Virus record (IMG/VR): IMGVR_UViG_3300036832_000975
Coordinates: 1,050 to 65,049 of that record
DNA from: a virus
Length of the DNA: 64,000 nt
Strand: one strand, 5' to 3'
Shown here: piece by piece, positions 892 through 47,645 of the stretch
Layout of the letters: each line of letters begins with the position of its first letter
Numbering within the stretch: the first letter of the stretch is position 1
Translations under genes and position numbers: made by a program
Notes under the pieces: model-generated
The model's database searches: none
Told to the model about the DNA's origin: nothing
What the model saw: only the letters and a program-made list of their open reading frames with translations

Positions 892-1932
892 ATGGTAGCG
901 CTTCGACGCGGTATAGCACATTATCAGGGCGGTACCGAAGATACGACGGTATCTGCGCAGCCTGCGGTAACGCTGCAGCGTCCGTTGGTGTCTACGTCAG
1001 TAGCGCCAGCAACAACACCGGTAGTGTCAGCAACACCTGCGGTACCTGTGGCACCAGCAGCGCTGGCACAGCGATCGCCGCTCAGTACTATGGGGGATAT
1101 GTTTACTGGTGGGTTTGGTAATGTTCTAGCAGACCCACGAGCGTCAGCGTTTTCTCAGTATATTGCTGGGATAAATCAGGCTGCGCAAAACCAGGAGCGG
1201 GCACAAAATCTTGCTCGTGGGCCTTCTGTTTATGAGAAAGTGACTAAAGGTCTTTTTGGCGACCAGGCTGACTGGGCGGATATTCAGAAACGCGATGTCA
1301 CGGCTAAAACGTTAGGCGATCCGTTGGTGCAGCAGCATCTTACGGTCGATCCTCGTGCGTTAGCAACGGCCGAACAGGACCCGCACGGGTTTGCGGCTCA
1401 AGCTCAAGACCCGAGTTTCAGGGCGGAGATGATGAAAGCGGCGGCGATTCATAAAGCGGCAGCAGCCAATCCAAGGATAACTACTCCGGACGAGTACGAT
1501 GCGACTGTAGATAGAGCGCGTGACGCTAATGCTCATCCGGACGTAGCGCATGTCGCCGTTGCGCCTCAGAAATATACGGTGGATGATTTCGTCAACACCT
1601 TCAAGGGTATTCCGACAGCTACCTTCATGCAGTTGTTTGGTGCACAGCTTCAGCATGTTCAGACCCCGCAAGAGAAAGCAGCGACAAAGGTCTTTGATCA
1701 CATGCATGGTGTGTATGCCGATGCTAACCAGAGGGTCAAGGCTATGGAGGATGAGGACGCAGCACTATGGAAAGAGGGCAAATCTAAAAAGTACGACACA
1801 TACATGTTGCCGTTTACAGGGAAGAATCCTTACAACACAGCAAAAGAAGAGCGGGACAAAGCGATGAAGGCTACCATGGATGCATTGTCCCAGTTCAGTG
1901 GAATATCCAACAAAGGCTACGTGGTACCGTAG
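892..1932 (+). CDS. Putative internal virion (ejection) protein
   Basis: Likely start ATG 892 after GAGG; Ala/Gln-rich helical sequence; lies between adaptor and the giant internal protein. Confidence 0.5.
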   Translation: MVALRRGIAHYQGGTEDTTVSAQPAVTLQRPLVSTSVAPATTPVVSATPAVPVAPAALAQRSPLSTMGDMFTGGFGNVLADPRASAFSQYIAGINQAAQNQERAQNLARGPSVYEKVTKGLFGDQADWADIQKRDVTAKTLGDPLVQQHLTVDPRALATAEQDPHGFAAQAQDPSFRAEMMKAAAIHKAAAANPRITTPDEYDATVDRARDANAHPDVAHVAVAPQKYTVDDFVNTFKGIPTATFMQLFGAQLQHVQTPQEKAATKVFDHMHGVYADANQRVKAMEDEDAALWKEGKSKKYDTYMLPFTGKNPYNTAKEERDKAMKATMDALSQFSGISNKGYVVP

Positions 1933-1941
1933 GCGAGAACG

Positions 1942-4900
1942 ATGGCTGAGCTGTACGATACTCCGTGGTTTAATACCAACTTGCCGCTGTCCGAGCCGGG
2001 TGCGTCGGCGTTACCGACGCGGCAGTTGCCGGCCGAGGTTCCGGCGACTGGCACTGGTGACTGGTTCACCTCTGGTGTCATGGCTGGTTTTCATGGAGCG
2101 CTCTCGGAGGGTGCCCGAGCGCTCCAGGCTGGTGCTCAGATGATGGGCTCGCCTGGTGCGGCCCAATCTCTCGCTGAGTTTGCTCAGGAGCATCATGCCC
2201 GCGAACAGTCGTACGCGCGTCCCGATCTGGAAGCCAACCCGTGGTCGCCCGCCGGGATCGGTTACCAGATCGCGCGTATGGTGCCGATGGGGGCTGCAGC
2301 TATTGGTGGGACCGCAATCGGGGCAGCGACAGCACCTGAAGCTGCAGCTGGGGCTGGTGCTGCGGCTATAGCTGCAGCGGCAAGGACAGCCTTTACTCGT
2401 CGTCTGGCGGGCGCTGCAGGGGCGATGTACCTCCCCGCCGCTGGAGCGAACGTTCAACGGCAGATCACTGAGACTGGCGAGCTTACCACTCCAGGCAAGG
2501 CGCTGGGACTTGGAGTGCCGGAAGCGATTGTGCAAGGAATATTGCCGGGACGACTGGAGAAGTTTTTCGGGGAAGGAATTTTGCGGGGGATCGCTCATTC
2601 TGCAGCGGCGCAAGGTGTTGCTGGTGGCGTGACCGAAGGATTGACCCAGTTGCTGGGTGACCCGAATCGTGGGTTCGCCGATCGAGCGGCTGCTATCGGA
2701 CAATCGACCTTGAGTGGCGCAGCACTTGGTGGGATCGTCGGCGGAGCGTTCGGTGGTCTTCATGCGCTTGTCGGTAAACCAGCGCAGAGCATCAAGACTG
2801 AAGACCTTAGTAAGTCGGTTGATCAGGCGCTCGAACCGCCGGCACAGGGGCAGCTCCCATTAACTGGCGGTGGAGTGCGTCAGGGGCAGCCGCAAGGTGA
2901 GCTGCCATTACAGGCACCTCGCCAACCGCCTGAACGTCAGTTGGGCCTATTCGGTATGCCTGGGACGCAGACCGATCTATTTCGACCTGAAGAACCTGCG
3001 CCGCGGGTGGCAGAGGCGGCACCTGCTGCTGAGCCTCCTGCCGCACCTGCACCCCCCGCTGCTGAACCTCCGCCATACGTAATAGATTTCACCAAGGGCA
3101 GGGTCAAGGAGGTTACGGCGGAGTATGAAAAAGCGACGCCAGAACAACAAGAAGAAATGGTACAGCCGTTGATCGATCAGATTATCGAACGTGGCGGTAA
3201 ACCAACAAAGCCACAGGAGAAATGGATCAAGGCGCTTGGGCTCGATATTTTGGACAAGGATACAGGTTACCTCAAGGACGAATTGATCCCGGAGCGGCCG
3301 CTTGAAGAGCCGCCAGAGCTTACAGCTGAGCCTGCTGCGTCGGTAGATCCAGGAGAACGGATCGAGTTTGCGAGCGCGGGGGCGCGGCGAGCGCCTGAGG
3401 GAACTGTCACGCAAGGAGTTACAAGACGTGCTCCTGTACCAGCTACTGCTGCGGAGCTGGCAGCTATCGAACGTAACAAGCAGCTCACGCAAGAGCTAAT
3501 TAATGCACCACGAGCTGTGTCTACTGACCCCAATGCGGGTAGGGTTGGCTATGCTTCTGCGGGGGCGGAACGTCAGCAGCCTTCTATACCTGAGGTGCCT
3601 CCTGCTGAACTAGCTCCTGCGACAGACTATACCGGCCCGCTTCATAGTCAGATTCATCCTAAGGATGAGGCTGCCCAGGCTGCTTATCAGCTTGGGCACC
3701 AGGACGCGCGCGCCGATATTTATCGAGAGTTTCCCGGTGATCCTAAGTTCGGCTATGCCTACGAACGCGGGCGCAACGACGGCAGAGCCGCCATGAGGGC
3801 TGCTCGTGATGTTCCGATCAAGACTGTGGATGATCGTGCTGATGTTCGTGACGTGGTTCGAAAGGATATCAACACGATCGATGATCCTGTTATACAGGGT
3901 CGTCTCAAGGAAAAGGTAGATAAAATAGATGCAATGTTGCCGGGTGCAGCGGAGCGTCCGAATTCGGATTTTGCTACGTCGCTCAACACACTGTTATCGC
4001 GCTTGCGTACGGAGACCCAGGAGGCCGCACAACCATCCCCAGACCAAATAGCGCCTCCGCCCCTGAGATCGTCGCCGCGCGCCGAGGCGGTGCCGGCACC
4101 GATGGTTGATCTTGGTGCTGCTGTGGAGGGCGCGCAGAGTGAGCTATCGAAATTCAAAAATATGCTGGGGAGAGGTCAAGCGGATGCGCTGGCAGGGGTC
4201 GAACAGCATTCGAAATGGCTAGCGGAGGTCAATAGAGCAGGGCCGGATGAGTTACAGGCTGCTTTGGCAAAAGACCCTGAAGCCTTGGCGGCCGCCGAGA
4301 CACCCGATGTAGCGGATTTGGGTGGTCTTAGACAGCTGAGTACTCCACAAAAGAAACAGCTGGCTGCGTACCTGAACGCTCAGGGTGAGGTGCTCAAGGC
4401 TTTGCGTGGACCCGAATCGCGCGCGCGAGTTGTCGCCTCGCGAGACGGGCTACCGGTAAAGCAGCTCGACGCCGATCTGGCGGACATGCATGTGCGTGGC
4501 GTCAAGTTGACTGACGCTCTCGATCACATCACCGAACACAGCGCCGATCCGGAGGAGGCTGAGCTTGCGGCGTGGATCAAGCAAGGTGTGCCGGAAGATG
4601 TAACGACGTCTTTCAGAGATGGTGTTACCGACAAAGAAGGCGAGTACTTTCCTAAGCAGCGGCTTTCGACACTCTACAATGCAGCAGATGCAACGGTAAC
4701 CACGCTTCATGAAGCAATACATGCGGCGCTGTCTCGGGTGCTCGATGGTAATAGTGCTCCGGCACGAGCCATTCGTGGTATTTATAATCAGCTCAAAGAT
4801 AAGGGGGATCACGCCGGTATAGCCAACGAACACGAGATGGTGGCTGAGGTCGCCAATCCGGTTTACCGGGCCTGGCTAAAGTCGCAGATCGTTCACGGCA

Positions 4901-26378: not shown

Positions 26379-26481
26379 GTTGAGCGTGTCCTTTATTGTT
26401 TGTGGTGCTTGTTCCAAAGTTGGATCGGGGTCCTGGTCGGAACAGGTCCAGGACCCAGGTGTTACATTTTGTAACACTTTT

Positions 26482-35445: not shown

Positions 35446-35805
35446 GGTAAGTTACTCCTTTGTTTAGTTAGTAAATTCCGGTGTTACATTTTGTAACACC
35501 GGCCGCACTTAGACCAGAATGTCGCATATGATCGTAAAGCCATCATCTTCCTTGAGCAGAATCTCTACTCGATTGGACCAACCTTCGGGGATACAGTCCA
35601 GGATGGCATCGATGGTGGTCATGGGAGAAGGTATCATCACCTTACCATCTGCCCACCACGGGCGCTGTATACCTGTCTGGATGCCCTCGGTCTCCAGGAA
35701 TCTAGTCAGTCTCGTCTCGATGCGGCGACACCGCTGGAGAACCTCCAGTAAGTTTCCCCGGTCGCTAGTAGCAAAGCCGCTGGCGTCCTTTACTAACATG
35801 GTCAG

Positions 35806-39677: not shown

Positions 39678-39957
39678 CGTACTAACCTTTCAGTAAGTCG
39701 TTGAGTTGGGTATTACATTTTGTCGTTGGGGCGCCATGAGTGACGACACACGACGAACTCGCCGGTGTCGAACTGAATGAACCTGTTGTACTCGTAAACA
39801 ACGTAAAACGCTTGCCAGGCGTCCCATTCCATTTTGGAGTGGTCGAAGGGAGGTAGTTTCATGTTAGTAACTCCTTTGTGGTCAGTAAGTTGGTGTTACA
39901 TTTTGTAACACCTTTCTCGTGCCAGTGGGTATCTTTTTCTAATCCACCGTAATAAGT

Positions 39958-43646: not shown

Positions 43647-44642
43647 TCACTTGGTAGGTGTTACATTTTGTAACACCTTATCTCGCGCATATTTCTTTCG
43701 TCTTTGCTCGTTGTATTTTTGACGTATGATTTCTCTCTGCCAGGCGTCCTGTTCTTTGGACAAGGGCCTGGTCGGGTCGGCCAGCTTGGCCAGGTCAGCT
43801 GGGGTGGCCCAGCCCTTTCCGTACACGCGGTGTTCTATTCCGTTGACCATCACGATCTCGGCAATGCCACGCGTCCTGTGCGTCGTGTATGGGCGGCCGC
43901 GCTTTTTCTTGGGCGGGTCACCCACGAGCTTATGTGCTCGAGCGTAGGCTAGAAGCCAGGCTTCCAATTCCTTGTGAACTCTCGGTACATCCGGGTCGCC
44001 ATCGATCCGGCCGAGCATGAGCGGAGATGGCGCATTCTGGACATCGTCGAGCACGTCGAGCGTCATTCGTTTTAGATTTTTCTGCCAATATATTTCAGGT
44101 TGCCATTCGTAAATGGCCCGACGCATGGTTTCGTAATAGGGACGTATGTCCCGGTCGCGCCGGGCGTATTGTGCACAGCGGATTATTGCTCTGGCGAAGG
44201 TTCGGGTCGAGCAACCATGGGGCGTAGCGATAAAATCTGCGAAGGAAATTTCCAACGCTCTCTCTGGGCGTGGCTTTACCGGGTCGAGCGCAATATCGGC
44301 GTAGGGCCGGATGCGTCGCCGGTAGTAAACCCACAAACGCAATACTTCCGTTCCGTCCACGTGCACGTCGGCGTATATGCCTTTATCGGTAATCTGCGTA
44401 TCGGCTGGGAAGGTGGCGTTGTGCGTTGCTATGGCGGTGCGTGCTCTTTCGATCGCGGTCTCGGGCAATGGAATACCAGCCACGCGCGCGTCGTAATACA
44501 TCCGGGCTTCCAGCCAGACGCGCCCACGTTCCGAGATGGGTCGCGTGAGAACGAAGAAATATTCGAGAGGGAATGAGTCTTCTGCGTATAGCACGAGCCT
44601 TGACAGCTCGGATCGGTTCCTGGGATTAAGCATCTCAGCCAT
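43647..44642 (-). CDS. Hypothetical DNA-binding protein with AT-hook
   Basis: KKKRGRPY at 43887-43910; basic C-terminus. Confidence 0.55.
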   Translation of the reverse strand: MAEMLNPRNRSELSRLVLYAEDSFPLEYFFVLTRPISERGRVWLEARMYYDARVAGIPLPETAIERARTAIATHNATFPADTQITDKGIYADVHVDGTEVLRLWVYYRRRIRPYADIALDPVKPRPERALEISFADFIATPHGCSTRTFARAIIRCAQYARRDRDIRPYYETMRRAIYEWQPEIYWQKNLKRMTLDVLDDVQNAPSPLMLGRIDGDPDVPRVHKELEAWLLAYARAHKLVGDPPKKKRGRPYTTHRTRGIAEIVMVNGIEHRVYGKGWATPADLAKLADPTRPLSKEQDAWQREIIRQKYNEQRRKKYARDKVLQNVTPTK

Positions 44643-44732: not shown

Positions 44733-44890
44733 ATGTCAAACCAAGAACCAATCGAGTGTCCGTGCTGCTATGGCAGGAAATACCTCACTGTGAAGACGGC
44801 CACACCATCGTCACGAAGCCTATGTGCTGCCACTGCCAGGGTAGCGGCACGGTAGAAGTGTTACAAAATGTAACACCTTCAAACACTTAG
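44733..44890 (+). pseudogene. Frameshifted DnaJ-type zinc-finger mini-gene
   Basis: CPCCYGRK in one frame and CCHCQGSG in the -1 frame; shift near 44790. Confidence 0.5.
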
Positions 44891-45274: not shown

Positions 45275-45345
45275 GACGATGACCCCACTGGTCCCTGGAT
45301 ACCACAAAAGTGCTACATCCTGTAACACATCCTAACATTAAACAC

Positions 45346-45373
45346 AAAAAAGGGCGCGGCTCGCGCCGCGCCC
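45346..45373 (-). terminator. Rho-independent terminator of the early operon
   Basis: GGGCGCGGC-GCGA-GCCGCGCCC followed by TTTTTT on the - strand. Confidence 0.9.
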
Positions 45374-45400
45374 CTTGGAAAGACTAGTTAGGTTTATAGC

Positions 45401-45880
45401 TTAGCGTGAATCTAGCCACATTGCTGCCCCAATCTTGGTTAACGCATATACCAACGCAGGAATAGACAGACCAAGCATTGTACCAGCTATCTGCATGACC
45501 AGATTGTCCGCTCCGCTGGCAAATGCGAGCGCATTGAGTATAGCGGACCATAGGATGGTCCCTAGAATGGCTGGCCGGAACACACGGGTTAGCTTAGTTC
45601 TAAGCTTATCGCTAATCGTGAGTTGCGCTAATTCTAGACTTACAAAGGCGCAGTCGACCCCGACTGCCATCGCCCAGGCTTGGTAAGTCTCACAGTGCGA
45701 TATGGTCCCGATACCTGAGGCTAAATGGTTTAGGGATAACCCGGTTAGGGTCACAGCCACTAACCCAACCGCGCTTGCTGCGAATAATTGGTGCGGGATG
45801 GTTTTACGTTTGGCGCGGGATATTGGTTTTGATTTTGCGCTGGGGATAACTGAGAGTTTGGTAACGTTGGTAGTGGTCAT
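45401..45880 (-). CDS. Multi-TM membrane protein (DUF2637-like), early gene 4
   Basis: Four hydrophobic segments; LS..HL..AWAMAVGVD pattern. Confidence 0.65.
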   Translation of the reverse strand: MTTTNVTKLSVIPSAKSKPISRAKRKTIPHQLFAASAVGLVAVTLTGLSLNHLASGIGTISHCETYQAWAMAVGVDCAFVSLELAQLTISDKLRTKLTRVFRPAILGTILWSAILNALAFASGADNLVMQIAGTMLGLSIPALVYALTKIGAAMWLDSR

Positions 45881-45945: not shown

Positions 45946-46110
45946 TTATTGGTTGTCATACCGCCCTAGGCACATGGCAACGTCGGGCGTGTCCCACATG
46001 CGCATGCGCCAATCGTGATTGAGTTCGAGCATGAGTTCGAGTTCGCGAATACGGTTTTCGAGGCGGTAAATCATGATCTTGGTGTTGCGGTCGATTGCTT
46101 GGTTGGTCAT
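45946..46110 (-). CDS. 54-aa early gene 3 (not in ORF track)
   Basis: MTNQAIDRNTKIMIYRLENRIRELELMLELNHDWRMRMWDTPDVAMCLGRYDNQ*. Confidence 0.6.
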   Translation of the reverse strand: MTNQAIDRNTKIMIYRLENRIRELELMLELNHDWRMRMWDTPDVAMCLGRYDNQ

Positions 46111-46207: not shown

Positions 46208-46882
46208 TTACCGGGGAGCGTTGGCGAGCCAATCACGCCACTCGGAACCACGATCGTCTACGAGCTTTCCAGCGTACTTTTTCTGGAGGCTCTTCATGGT
46301 GAGTACTAACCTGTTGAGCGCGTCGAACACGTCGACGTCGTCCTTTGGGTTCACGATTTCATCGGCCTTGACGAGTCGTGCTTCGTGTGCGGCCTTTTCG
46401 GCTTCGCGTTCGGCGCGCTTGACCTCGGTGTCTTGGTTCTCGGGCTTGGTGATGCCGGCCATACGCTTGGCACGGGAGATCAATACCCTGACTGCGACCA
46501 TGACGCGTTCTTGATCCGCTGTGCGGTTTTCGTCGGTGTTCTTGCTGGGATTAAGCTGGTTGTACTTTTTCAGGCCAATGACCCGCTTGGACTCTTCCCG
46601 GTCATAGCCGAGCTTGCGAACCATGTAGCCTTCGGTGAGAGCCTGGATCATATCTCCTAAGACTTGCTCGTTGGTCTTGAACGTGGTGAAAGCCTGAGTG
46701 AGGCTACCGTCCAGCCCAGCCATGCTGGAACCGAACTCGAAGGCAATGTCGCAAGCCTGAGCTGGAGTCATCATCACCACGCTGTTGGGGAGCTTGGTGC
46801 CCGTCATGGCCTTACCCTTGGCCTTGCCGTTGGCCTTGGTCACGGGAGTCGTAGCGGTAACAACAGATTGTACGTTAGTCAT
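46208..46882 (-). CDS. 224-aa hypothetical early protein (gene 2) between the two ribozymes
   Basis: ATG 46882 with AAAGG SD; basic, helical; no family recognised. Confidence 0.75.
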   Translation of the reverse strand: MTNVQSVVTATTPVTKANGKAKGKAMTGTKLPNSVVMMTPAQACDIAFEFGSSMAGLDGSLTQAFTTFKTNEQVLGDMIQALTEGYMVRKLGYDREESKRVIGLKKYNQLNPSKNTDENRTADQERVMVAVRVLISRAKRMAGITKPENQDTEVKRAEREAEKAAHEARLVKADEIVNPKDDVDVFDALNRLVLTMKSLQKKYAGKLVDDRGSEWRDWLANAPR

Positions 46883-46897
46883 GTTGTAAGTGCCTTT

Positions 46898-46976
46898 GTT
46901 CGTGGCTATCTGGCCATCATCAGGCACGGCTTTACCGTGCGACGCGGGATAACCCCGCGTTTCGGCCTTAACGAAC
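46898..46976 (-). ncRNA. Type II hammerhead ribozyme A (extra U after A9)
   Basis: GUUCGU-UAA-GGCC-GAAAC-[GCGGGG UUA UCCCGC]-GUC-[GCACGG UAAAG CCGUGC]-CUGAUGA-U-GGCC-AGAUAGCC-ACGAAC. Confidence 0.88.
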
Positions 46977-47216
46977 GCGCTGTATTGCGGCTTTCACATC
47001 ATCAACACTCACATCAAGAACGTTTGCCATGTGCTGGTAGACAAGCTCACCCATGGCTAACGGATCATTACGATGCATTTCCATCTCTTCATACGTGGCG
47101 TACCTATCGCCACGGTTGTAATGCTGTAGTTCGTGCGCTTCGCGTGCCAGTGCGGCGAACTGTGCGTATGTCATGCGCCGATGTCCGATTTTGGTTCGCT
47201 TGCTGTACGTTTTCAT
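46968..47216 (-). CDS. 82-aa early gene 1
   Basis: ATG 47216 after AGAGGA; first ORF after the early promoter. Confidence 0.65.
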   Translation of the reverse strand: MKTYSKRTKIGHRRMTYAQFAALAREAHELQHYNRGDRYATYEEMEMHRNDPLAMGELVYQHMANVLDVSVDDVKAAIQRVR

Positions 47217-47257
47217 CTTATATCCTCTGTTATCAGTTAATCCCATCACCCAATCAA

Positions 47258-47287
47258 ACAATAGCACAGTACATTGGATGTTGTCAA
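47258..47287 (-). promoter_or_regulatory. Sigma70-like early promoter
   Basis: TTGACA-18 nt-TATTGT with TG extended -10. Confidence 0.7.
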
Positions 47288-47645
47288 CTAGCAGGTGTTA
47301 TATGATGTTACACCTTACCCCCGCTCTACCCCTAGCCCGTAAGAATTACTTGTCGGCAGAGCGACCGGCCCAAGGGGATCGCTCGCAAGTGCTTGCGGCT
47401 GCTTGCCCATCCAACAAATAAAATTTGGAATTTTTTGCCATAAATCAACTTATACACTAAAACTATATATGTAAAATTTGAGATTTTTTACCAAAATCAA
47501 ATAATGTACTAGAAAAAATTTAGAACCAGATTTTTTGAGAATATCTAACCAGCCGCCAGTACCAGCGAGACCTACGCGCAAACCCGGCCGGCCGGCGAAC
47601 CACCCCGAGAAGACGTTCATGTCGTAGTGTCACGTAAAACATGTT

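Follow-up and report, generated by a model that had tools for sequence, protein, structure and literature searches.

The window, that is, the whole 64,000-nucleotide stretch of DNA analysed here, comes from a 65-kb IMG/VR virus record, and the region described below is read on its minus strand. In the direction of transcription, the window holds a promoter, gene 1, a first hammerhead (hammerhead A), gene 2, a second hammerhead (hammerhead B), two small ORFs and a terminator, with the following features:

47295–47313, minus strand: operator-like palindrome GUGUAACAUCAUAUAACAC upstream of the promoter, one of seven related sites in the window
47258–47287, minus strand: sigma-70-like promoter (TTGACA, 18-nt spacer, TG-TATTGT); its homologue in the relatives is the promoter of gene 2
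46968–47219, minus strand: gene 1, an orphan ORF of 83 aa whose ribosome-binding site is GAGGA (from the ORF listing and its translation)
46208–46897, minus strand: gene 2 with its ribosome-binding site AAAGG (46897–46893) and AUG at 46882, encoding a conserved phage protein of 224 aa
46130–46200, minus strand: hammerhead B, without an extra U, stem II GGUC/GACC, same family as hammerhead A (family model R1, see below)
45946–46110 and 45401–45880, minus strand: two small ORFs of 54 and 159 aa between hammerhead B and the terminator
45349–45376, minus strand: intrinsic terminator closing the four-gene unit (terminator prediction)

For neither gene 1 nor gene 2 did Pfam, PHROGs or the ESM Atlas return a match pointing to a function. 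Gene 2 has homologs in 69 clusters, all of them hypothetical proteins, whereas searches of viral contigs and of 5.8 billion proteins detected no relative of gene 1. A blastn search of phage GenBank entries with the 2.1-kb region gave no match.

Hammerhead A and its phage family

Hammerhead A lies between gene 1 and gene 2 and is built, from 5' to 3', of the elements listed below. The sequence and coordinates given in a preliminary description of this DNA (window positions 46976–46898, minus strand), including CUGAUGA-U-GGCC, the UAA of gene 1 at 46970–46968 and the complementary hexamers GUUCGU/ACGAAC, were verified throughout.

46971–46976, minus strand: GUUCGU, the two sense codons that end gene 1, also the 5' strand of a proposed distal helix (sequence, folding)
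46968–46970, minus strand: UAA stop codon of gene 1, whose last A (46968) is directly 5' of stem II (translation, family alignment)
46964–46967, minus strand: stem II 5' strand GGCC, positions 11.4–11.1 (family model and alignment)
46961–46963, minus strand: core G12 A13 A14, GAA (sequence, family model)
46942–46960, minus strand: stem III hairpin with the A15.1–U16.1 closing pair (folding, alignment)
46941, minus strand: C17; cleavage is predicted 3' of C17, between 46941 and 46940 (hammerhead consensus position)
46924–46940, minus strand: stem I hairpin GCACGGU-AAA-GCCGUGC, with a G1.1–C2.1 pair (alignment)
46917–46923, minus strand: core C3 U4 G5 A6 U7 G8 A9, CUGAUGA (sequence, family model)
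46916, minus strand: extra U between A9 and G10.1, present also in 50 of 179 family members among the matches listed
46912–46915, minus strand: stem II 3' strand GGCC, positions 10.1–10.4 (family model and alignment)
46903–46911, minus strand: tail AGAUAGCCA (folding)
46904–46911, minus strand: AGAUAGCC, between stem II and ACGAAC (sequence)
46898–46903, minus strand: ACGAAC, 3' strand of the proposed distal helix (sequence, folding)

The core elements expected of a type II hammerhead are in place (CUGAUGA at 46923–46917 and GAA at 46963–46961), A46960 pairs with U46942, and the H17 position that follows is C17 at 46941. Since stem II is open while stems I and III are capped, hammerhead A is of type II. 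Its core agrees with the family model at every position apart from the insertion, U46916 separating A9 from the G10.1–C11.1 pair that would otherwise follow directly. Stem I carries the G-C and U-G pairs that the family conserves beneath the loop, and its exact pattern is absent from the viral contigs searched. A reading of the region as a type I or type III hammerhead with a closed stem II (UGGC-CAGAUA-GCCA) was rejected; the bases that come next are GAAC, not GAAA.

Family membership was assessed with R1, a covariance model constructed from 52 phage hammerheads in other contigs and using no window sequence. In a cmsearch of the 64-kb window, R1 matched hammerhead A end to end (46970–46906, 74.3 bits, E 4e-20) and hammerhead B (46200–46130, 59.1 bits, E 1.5e-15), and nothing else. 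RNAalifold, applied to the 52 relatives, recovered stems I, II and III with compensatory changes in 12 of the 16 pairs; the stem II pair 6–72, for example, is C-G in 41 and U-A in six sequences of this alignment. Both the significant R1 score and the presence of A46968 at the position of an invariant A place hammerhead A in a phage subfamily of type II hammerheads with a GGCC stem. Rfam did not report hammerhead A, whether at the gathering threshold or at E ≤ 10: it does not attain the RF02276 gathering score of 37 bits, and at E ≤ 10 this model listed only hammerhead B (46197–46133, 25.9 bits versus the cut-off of 37). With its R1 score, which is far beyond what chance would give, hammerhead A belongs fully to a large family of phage hammerheads, and the standard Rfam model misses this GGCC-stem subfamily.

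Hammerhead A resembles the type II hammerheads described from bacteria and (pro)phages (Perreault et al. 2011, PMC3088659; RF02276) in having capped stems I and III, an open stem II and a consensus core, in lying between phage genes, and in belonging to a pair that flanks a single small gene (PMC3088659). The RF02276 consensus of Rfam likewise has an A before stem II. However, hammerhead A differs from the described type II members (PMC3088659) in the U that follows A9, in a stem II of 4 bp (GGCC/GGCC) rather than 1–2 bp, in falling below Rfam detection, and in having no pseudoknot between loop I and the 3' tail, a contact formed in most of them (PMC3088659). The best complement between loop I and the tail of hammerhead A is 2 bp. 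The pseudoknot was likewise rejected for the family of hammerhead A as a whole, in which cognate loop–tail pairs are no better than mismatched ones. Judged by its sequence, the element between these two phage genes is a genuine type II hammerhead ribozyme, for which self-cleavage is predicted. What purpose hammerheads serve in phages and bacteria is still an open question (PMC6765202, PMC6155905).

Hammerhead B, a member of the same family, shares with hammerhead A a near-identical stem I, the G1.1–C2.1 pair and a position just after a stop codon. It differs in the absence of the extra U, in its stem II pairing, in a C at N7, and in a tail that forms a small hairpin of its own; furthermore, it begins 10 nt past the stop codon of gene 2, whereas the stop codon of gene 1 abuts hammerhead A.

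The inserted U

The preliminary description had pointed out that one base is inserted between A9 and G10.1, and that an insertion at this place is tolerated in a viroid hammerhead. Both statements hold, the first for U46916 and the second for the CChMVd (+) hammerhead. In the summary that PMC3705267 gives of De la Pena & Flores 2001, the viroid ribozyme has a natural extra A10; changing A10 to U raised the trans-cleavage rate 3–4 fold, while C or G was harmful. The two hammerheads are thus alike in carrying one nucleotide between A9 and G10.1, where a U is tolerated in the viroid and even raises the rate. In other respects they differ, since CChMVd (+), as portrayed there, is a type III hammerhead that serves rolling-circle RNA replication and whose inserted A plays an additional part in the fold of the viroid, whereas hammerhead A is a type II hammerhead in the mRNA of a DNA phage and carries a U.

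To define an extra-U class, we used a search pattern with fixed GGCC-GAAAC, GUC and CUGAUGA-U-GGCC, which was present in 45 viral contigs, compared with an estimated <1 by chance. The same pattern without the U was present in at least 120 viral contigs; the U-class and U-less samples are the product of two fixed search patterns. A simple descriptor applied to the 45 extra-U loci yielded additional co-resident hammerheads, and the pooled loci comprise, among the matches listed, 179 non-identical hammerheads, 129 without and 50 with the insertion. The inserted base is U in all 50 (among the matches listed). About nine extra-U copies lie outside the exact pattern, most of them differing in stem II (GGUC/U-GACC, GGUC/U-GGCC or GGCC/U-GGCU), so that stem II covaries while the U stays.

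The U-class is also distinguished by the first pair of stem I, which adjoins the cleavage site. Among the matches listed, G1.1–C2.1 is found in 39 of 50 U-class hammerheads versus 17 of 129 U-less ones; after similar stems had been collapsed, which corrects partly for ancestry, the numbers among the matches listed were 19 of 28 versus 9 of 59 (p 3e-6). U-less members favour U-A or C-G at 1.1–2.1 (179 hammerheads, among the matches listed), and positions 1.2–1.5 are free to vary in both classes alike. The association between the extra U and G1.1–C2.1 may, perhaps, reflect a compensatory relation between the two positions. As these comparisons suggest, the extra U appears to be a recurrent, selected variant of the hammerhead family, neither a defect nor peculiar to hammerhead A. 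In the literature searched, we found no insertion that is always U, no link between such a U and G1.1–C2.1, and no cleavage assay for the RNA of hammerhead A or of any extra-U member.

Stop codon, 3' tail and competing folds

The UAA of gene 1 had been described as occupying an internal loop of an extended stem II. Its position is correct, but no special internal loop holds it; the last A of this stop codon forms the ribozyme's conserved 5' edge. In 179 of 179 hammerheads among the matches listed, an A stands directly before stem II. Of the matches listed, 171 lie downstream of an ORF of 50 codons or more; in 40 of these the stop codon shares one base with stem II (UAG-GCC), and in 30 it abuts stem II, as in hammerhead A (UAA or UGA, then GGCC), the invariant A being used by the stop in 70; in roughly 64% the stop is no more than 2 nt from stem II, and in none does it intrude into the ribozyme by more than one base. 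The distribution of stop positions is the same with and without the extra U. The UAA thus adjoins stem II because stop codons commonly make use of the invariant A at the ribozyme's 5' edge, and a stop codon beside stem II is, in these alignments, a family-wide trait that is not specific to hammerhead A. By its footprint, a terminating ribosome would, in most members, sit on the stem II 5' strand, the GAAA and the first part of stem III. Throughout the family, a terminating ribosome and a folded ribozyme would generically exclude each other, with or without a distal stem.

Downstream of stem II, the tail of hammerhead A can enter alternative pairings. GCCA (46906–46903) can pair with UGGC (46916–46913), forming a hairpin that competes with stem II, and the tail GCC can also pair with the GGC of the 5' strand. 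When GCC was counted within 14 nt of the 3' tail, the base after it was A in nine of ten U-class hammerheads, and G in the tenth, versus A in 5 of 20 U-less ones (p 0.0014, ancestry partly corrected; all among the matches listed). This association fits a hairpin U-GGC/GCC-A, which, if formed, may favour product release. About one-quarter of the family members among the matches listed have the sequence NUCAG in the 3' tail, complementary to core C3–N7 (for example at loci L042:1695, L056 and L139). Its N covaries with N7, being A in 37 and G in three members with U7, and G in three with C7, and UCAG occurs in the near tail of 44 of 177 hammerheads versus 9 of 177 further downstream (both among the matches listed). 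The covariation of N with N7 supports a putative helix that would hide the catalytic core.

It is possible, although we consider it somewhat unlikely, that these pairings add a conformational gate to cleavage throughout the family, the 3' tail competing with the active fold through GCCA/U-GGC in hammerhead A and through NUCAG/core CUGAN elsewhere. The competing fold would delay cleavage until the tail is occupied, or it would free the 5' product and make cleavage irreversible, and ribosomes stopping at the invariant A may reset it. Such a gate would account for the covariation of N with N7, for the enrichment of UCAG in the near tail and for the specificity of GCC-A for the extra-U class (all among the matches listed), and when hammerhead A is folded in a 106-nt context its tail hairpin reaches a pair probability of 0.62–0.68. 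However, each tail type occurs in only about 20–25% of the members, many of which run straight into the ribosome-binding site, and the GCCA of hammerhead A may itself be a remnant of an ancestral leader hairpin. We give little credence to the narrower proposal that the extra-U hammerheads are a functionally distinct subclass, in which the U, G1.1–C2.1 and a tail pairing with U-GGC would together form a ribosome-reset gate; were it true, intercistronic cleavage would depend on upstream translation across many phages. Neither tails that compete with the active fold nor an invariant A at the edge of stem II doubling as the last base of a stop codon were found in the literature searched.

The preliminary description had extended stem II through GUUCGU/ACGAAC and suggested that cleavage might be coupled to translation. 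In this model, a ribosome that terminates on gene 1 would melt the extension, and the cleavage rate or product release would be tuned to the translation of gene 1 in this particular copy. A ribosome positioned at the UAA would have 46967 to about 46958 under its footprint and would melt the GUU and CGU codons. The six Watson-Crick pairs do exist (about −3.8 kcal/mol); in a 79-nt context their pair probability is 0.84–0.97, and the helix appears in the MFE and centroid folds, with the active stem II at 0.50 tying with the inactive pairing between the 5' GGC and the tail GCC at 0.45. In the 106-nt context, however, the tail hairpin dominates, the distal helix has a probability of only 0.17 and the active stem II one of 0.11. 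Three mutually exclusive helices are near-isoenergetic, the dominant one varying with the length of RNA folded, and in nearest-neighbour folding the active stem II of hammerhead A has no clear advantage.

Since the searches detected no relative of gene 1, the distal stem was tested on the flanks of the family rather than on orthologues of hammerhead A, and a comparison of 54 related hammerheads showed no conservation of it. For the longest helix that a 20-nt 5' flank can form with a 20-nt tail, cognate and mismatched pairs gave the same length distribution, and helices of at least six Watson-Crick pairs occur in 2 of 54 real cases compared with about 4% of mismatched ones; the conserved helix that would mark a translation-gated ribozyme, enclosing the stop codon and running from the end of the ORF to the 3' tail, was not seen. 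Furthermore, the part of the tail that runs from about AGAUAGCC up to the AUG can be aligned with the leader of gene 2 in ribozyme-free relatives, and the 3' strand of the distal helix, which lies within this sequence, is thus probably older than the insertion. The adjacency of the stop codon, in turn, is generic and independent of any distal helix. Family comparison and folding together indicate that GUUCGU/ACGAAC is probably fortuitous, and we regard copy-specific coupling to translation as quite improbable.

Alternatively, hammerhead A might be decayed and inactive, leaving hammerhead B alone at work; the extra U, adjoining the metal-binding site at A9/G10.1, would break this junction, and Rfam gave no match for hammerhead A. 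This is very improbable, as among the matches listed the U is kept in 50 diverged members with compensatory stem changes and is never replaced by another base, the remaining core positions are all consensus, and a U at this place raised the rate of the viroid hammerhead (PMC3705267).

Gene 2 between two hammerheads

Gene 2 was compared with ten related loci; closer relatives of it are known only as proteins (P0004–P0020). All ten have an operator palindrome and a promoter homologous to window positions 47313–47258, followed by a short leader, gene 2, and one or two terminators. Gene 1 is absent from all ten, and a search with the family model found no hammerhead in any of them. Hammerheads A and B bracket gene 2 exactly at the positions where the transcript of the relatives starts and ends. 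The locus therefore offers a natural comparison between ten relatives whose gene 2 has its own promoter and terminators and a ribozyme-bracketed gene 2 within a four-gene unit. The 54- and 159-aa ORFs stand where the relatives have only terminators and, like gene 1, look like inserted cargo that arrived with a ribozyme. A membrane protein may be encoded by the 159-aa ORF, for which there is a weak CrgA-like match.

Clustered hammerheads around single prophage genes have been found to cleave in vitro and in vivo (PMC3088659), and it has been proposed that they cut long transcripts into single-gene messages (PMC3088659; PMC6765202). The bracketing of gene 2 by hammerheads A and B fits this proposal, and most likely the two ribozymes excise a single-gene gene 2 message.

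From this context, together with family membership and covariation, we infer cleavage and its effects on the mRNAs. Hammerhead A would fold during leftward early transcription and cut after C17. The upstream product would be a gene 1 message with the stem III hairpin and a 2',3'-cyclic phosphate at its 3' end, and the downstream product a gene 2 message starting with a 5'-OH and the stem I hairpin. With hammerhead B cutting just after gene 2, the pair would release a single-gene gene 2 mRNA and reproduce the promoter–gene–terminator unit of the relatives. We consider it likely that hammerhead A self-cleaves co-transcriptionally at 46941/46940 and, with hammerhead B, frees a hairpin-capped gene 2 message, the extra U being selected and the distal stem incidental. 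On this reading, the gene 2 locus speaks for the idea that single-gene messages, once interrupted by the insertion of small genes, are restored by hammerheads.

The 19-nt palindrome GTGTWACA-N3-TGTWACAC occurs at seven sites in the window (47295–47313, 45310–45328, 44858–44876, 43658–43676, 39893–39911, 35481–35499 and 26459–26477), giving 12 strand-matches versus 0.01 expected. One site is just upstream of the promoter of gene 1 and gene 2, a location at which the palindrome is conserved in all relatives, and a phage regulator probably has this palindrome as its operator.

Directly after the gene 2 terminators, several relatives have short tandem repeats with units of about 8–22 nt, for example CAGGACGC and GCTGCAGGCTCGCAC (L004, 2190–2329; L006, 2180–2298; L173; L174). 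A 67-kb phage contig, IMGVR_UViG_3300038412_000035 (L053), has nine type II hammerheads within about 3 kb (approximately 1100–4100), almost one hammerhead per small gene.
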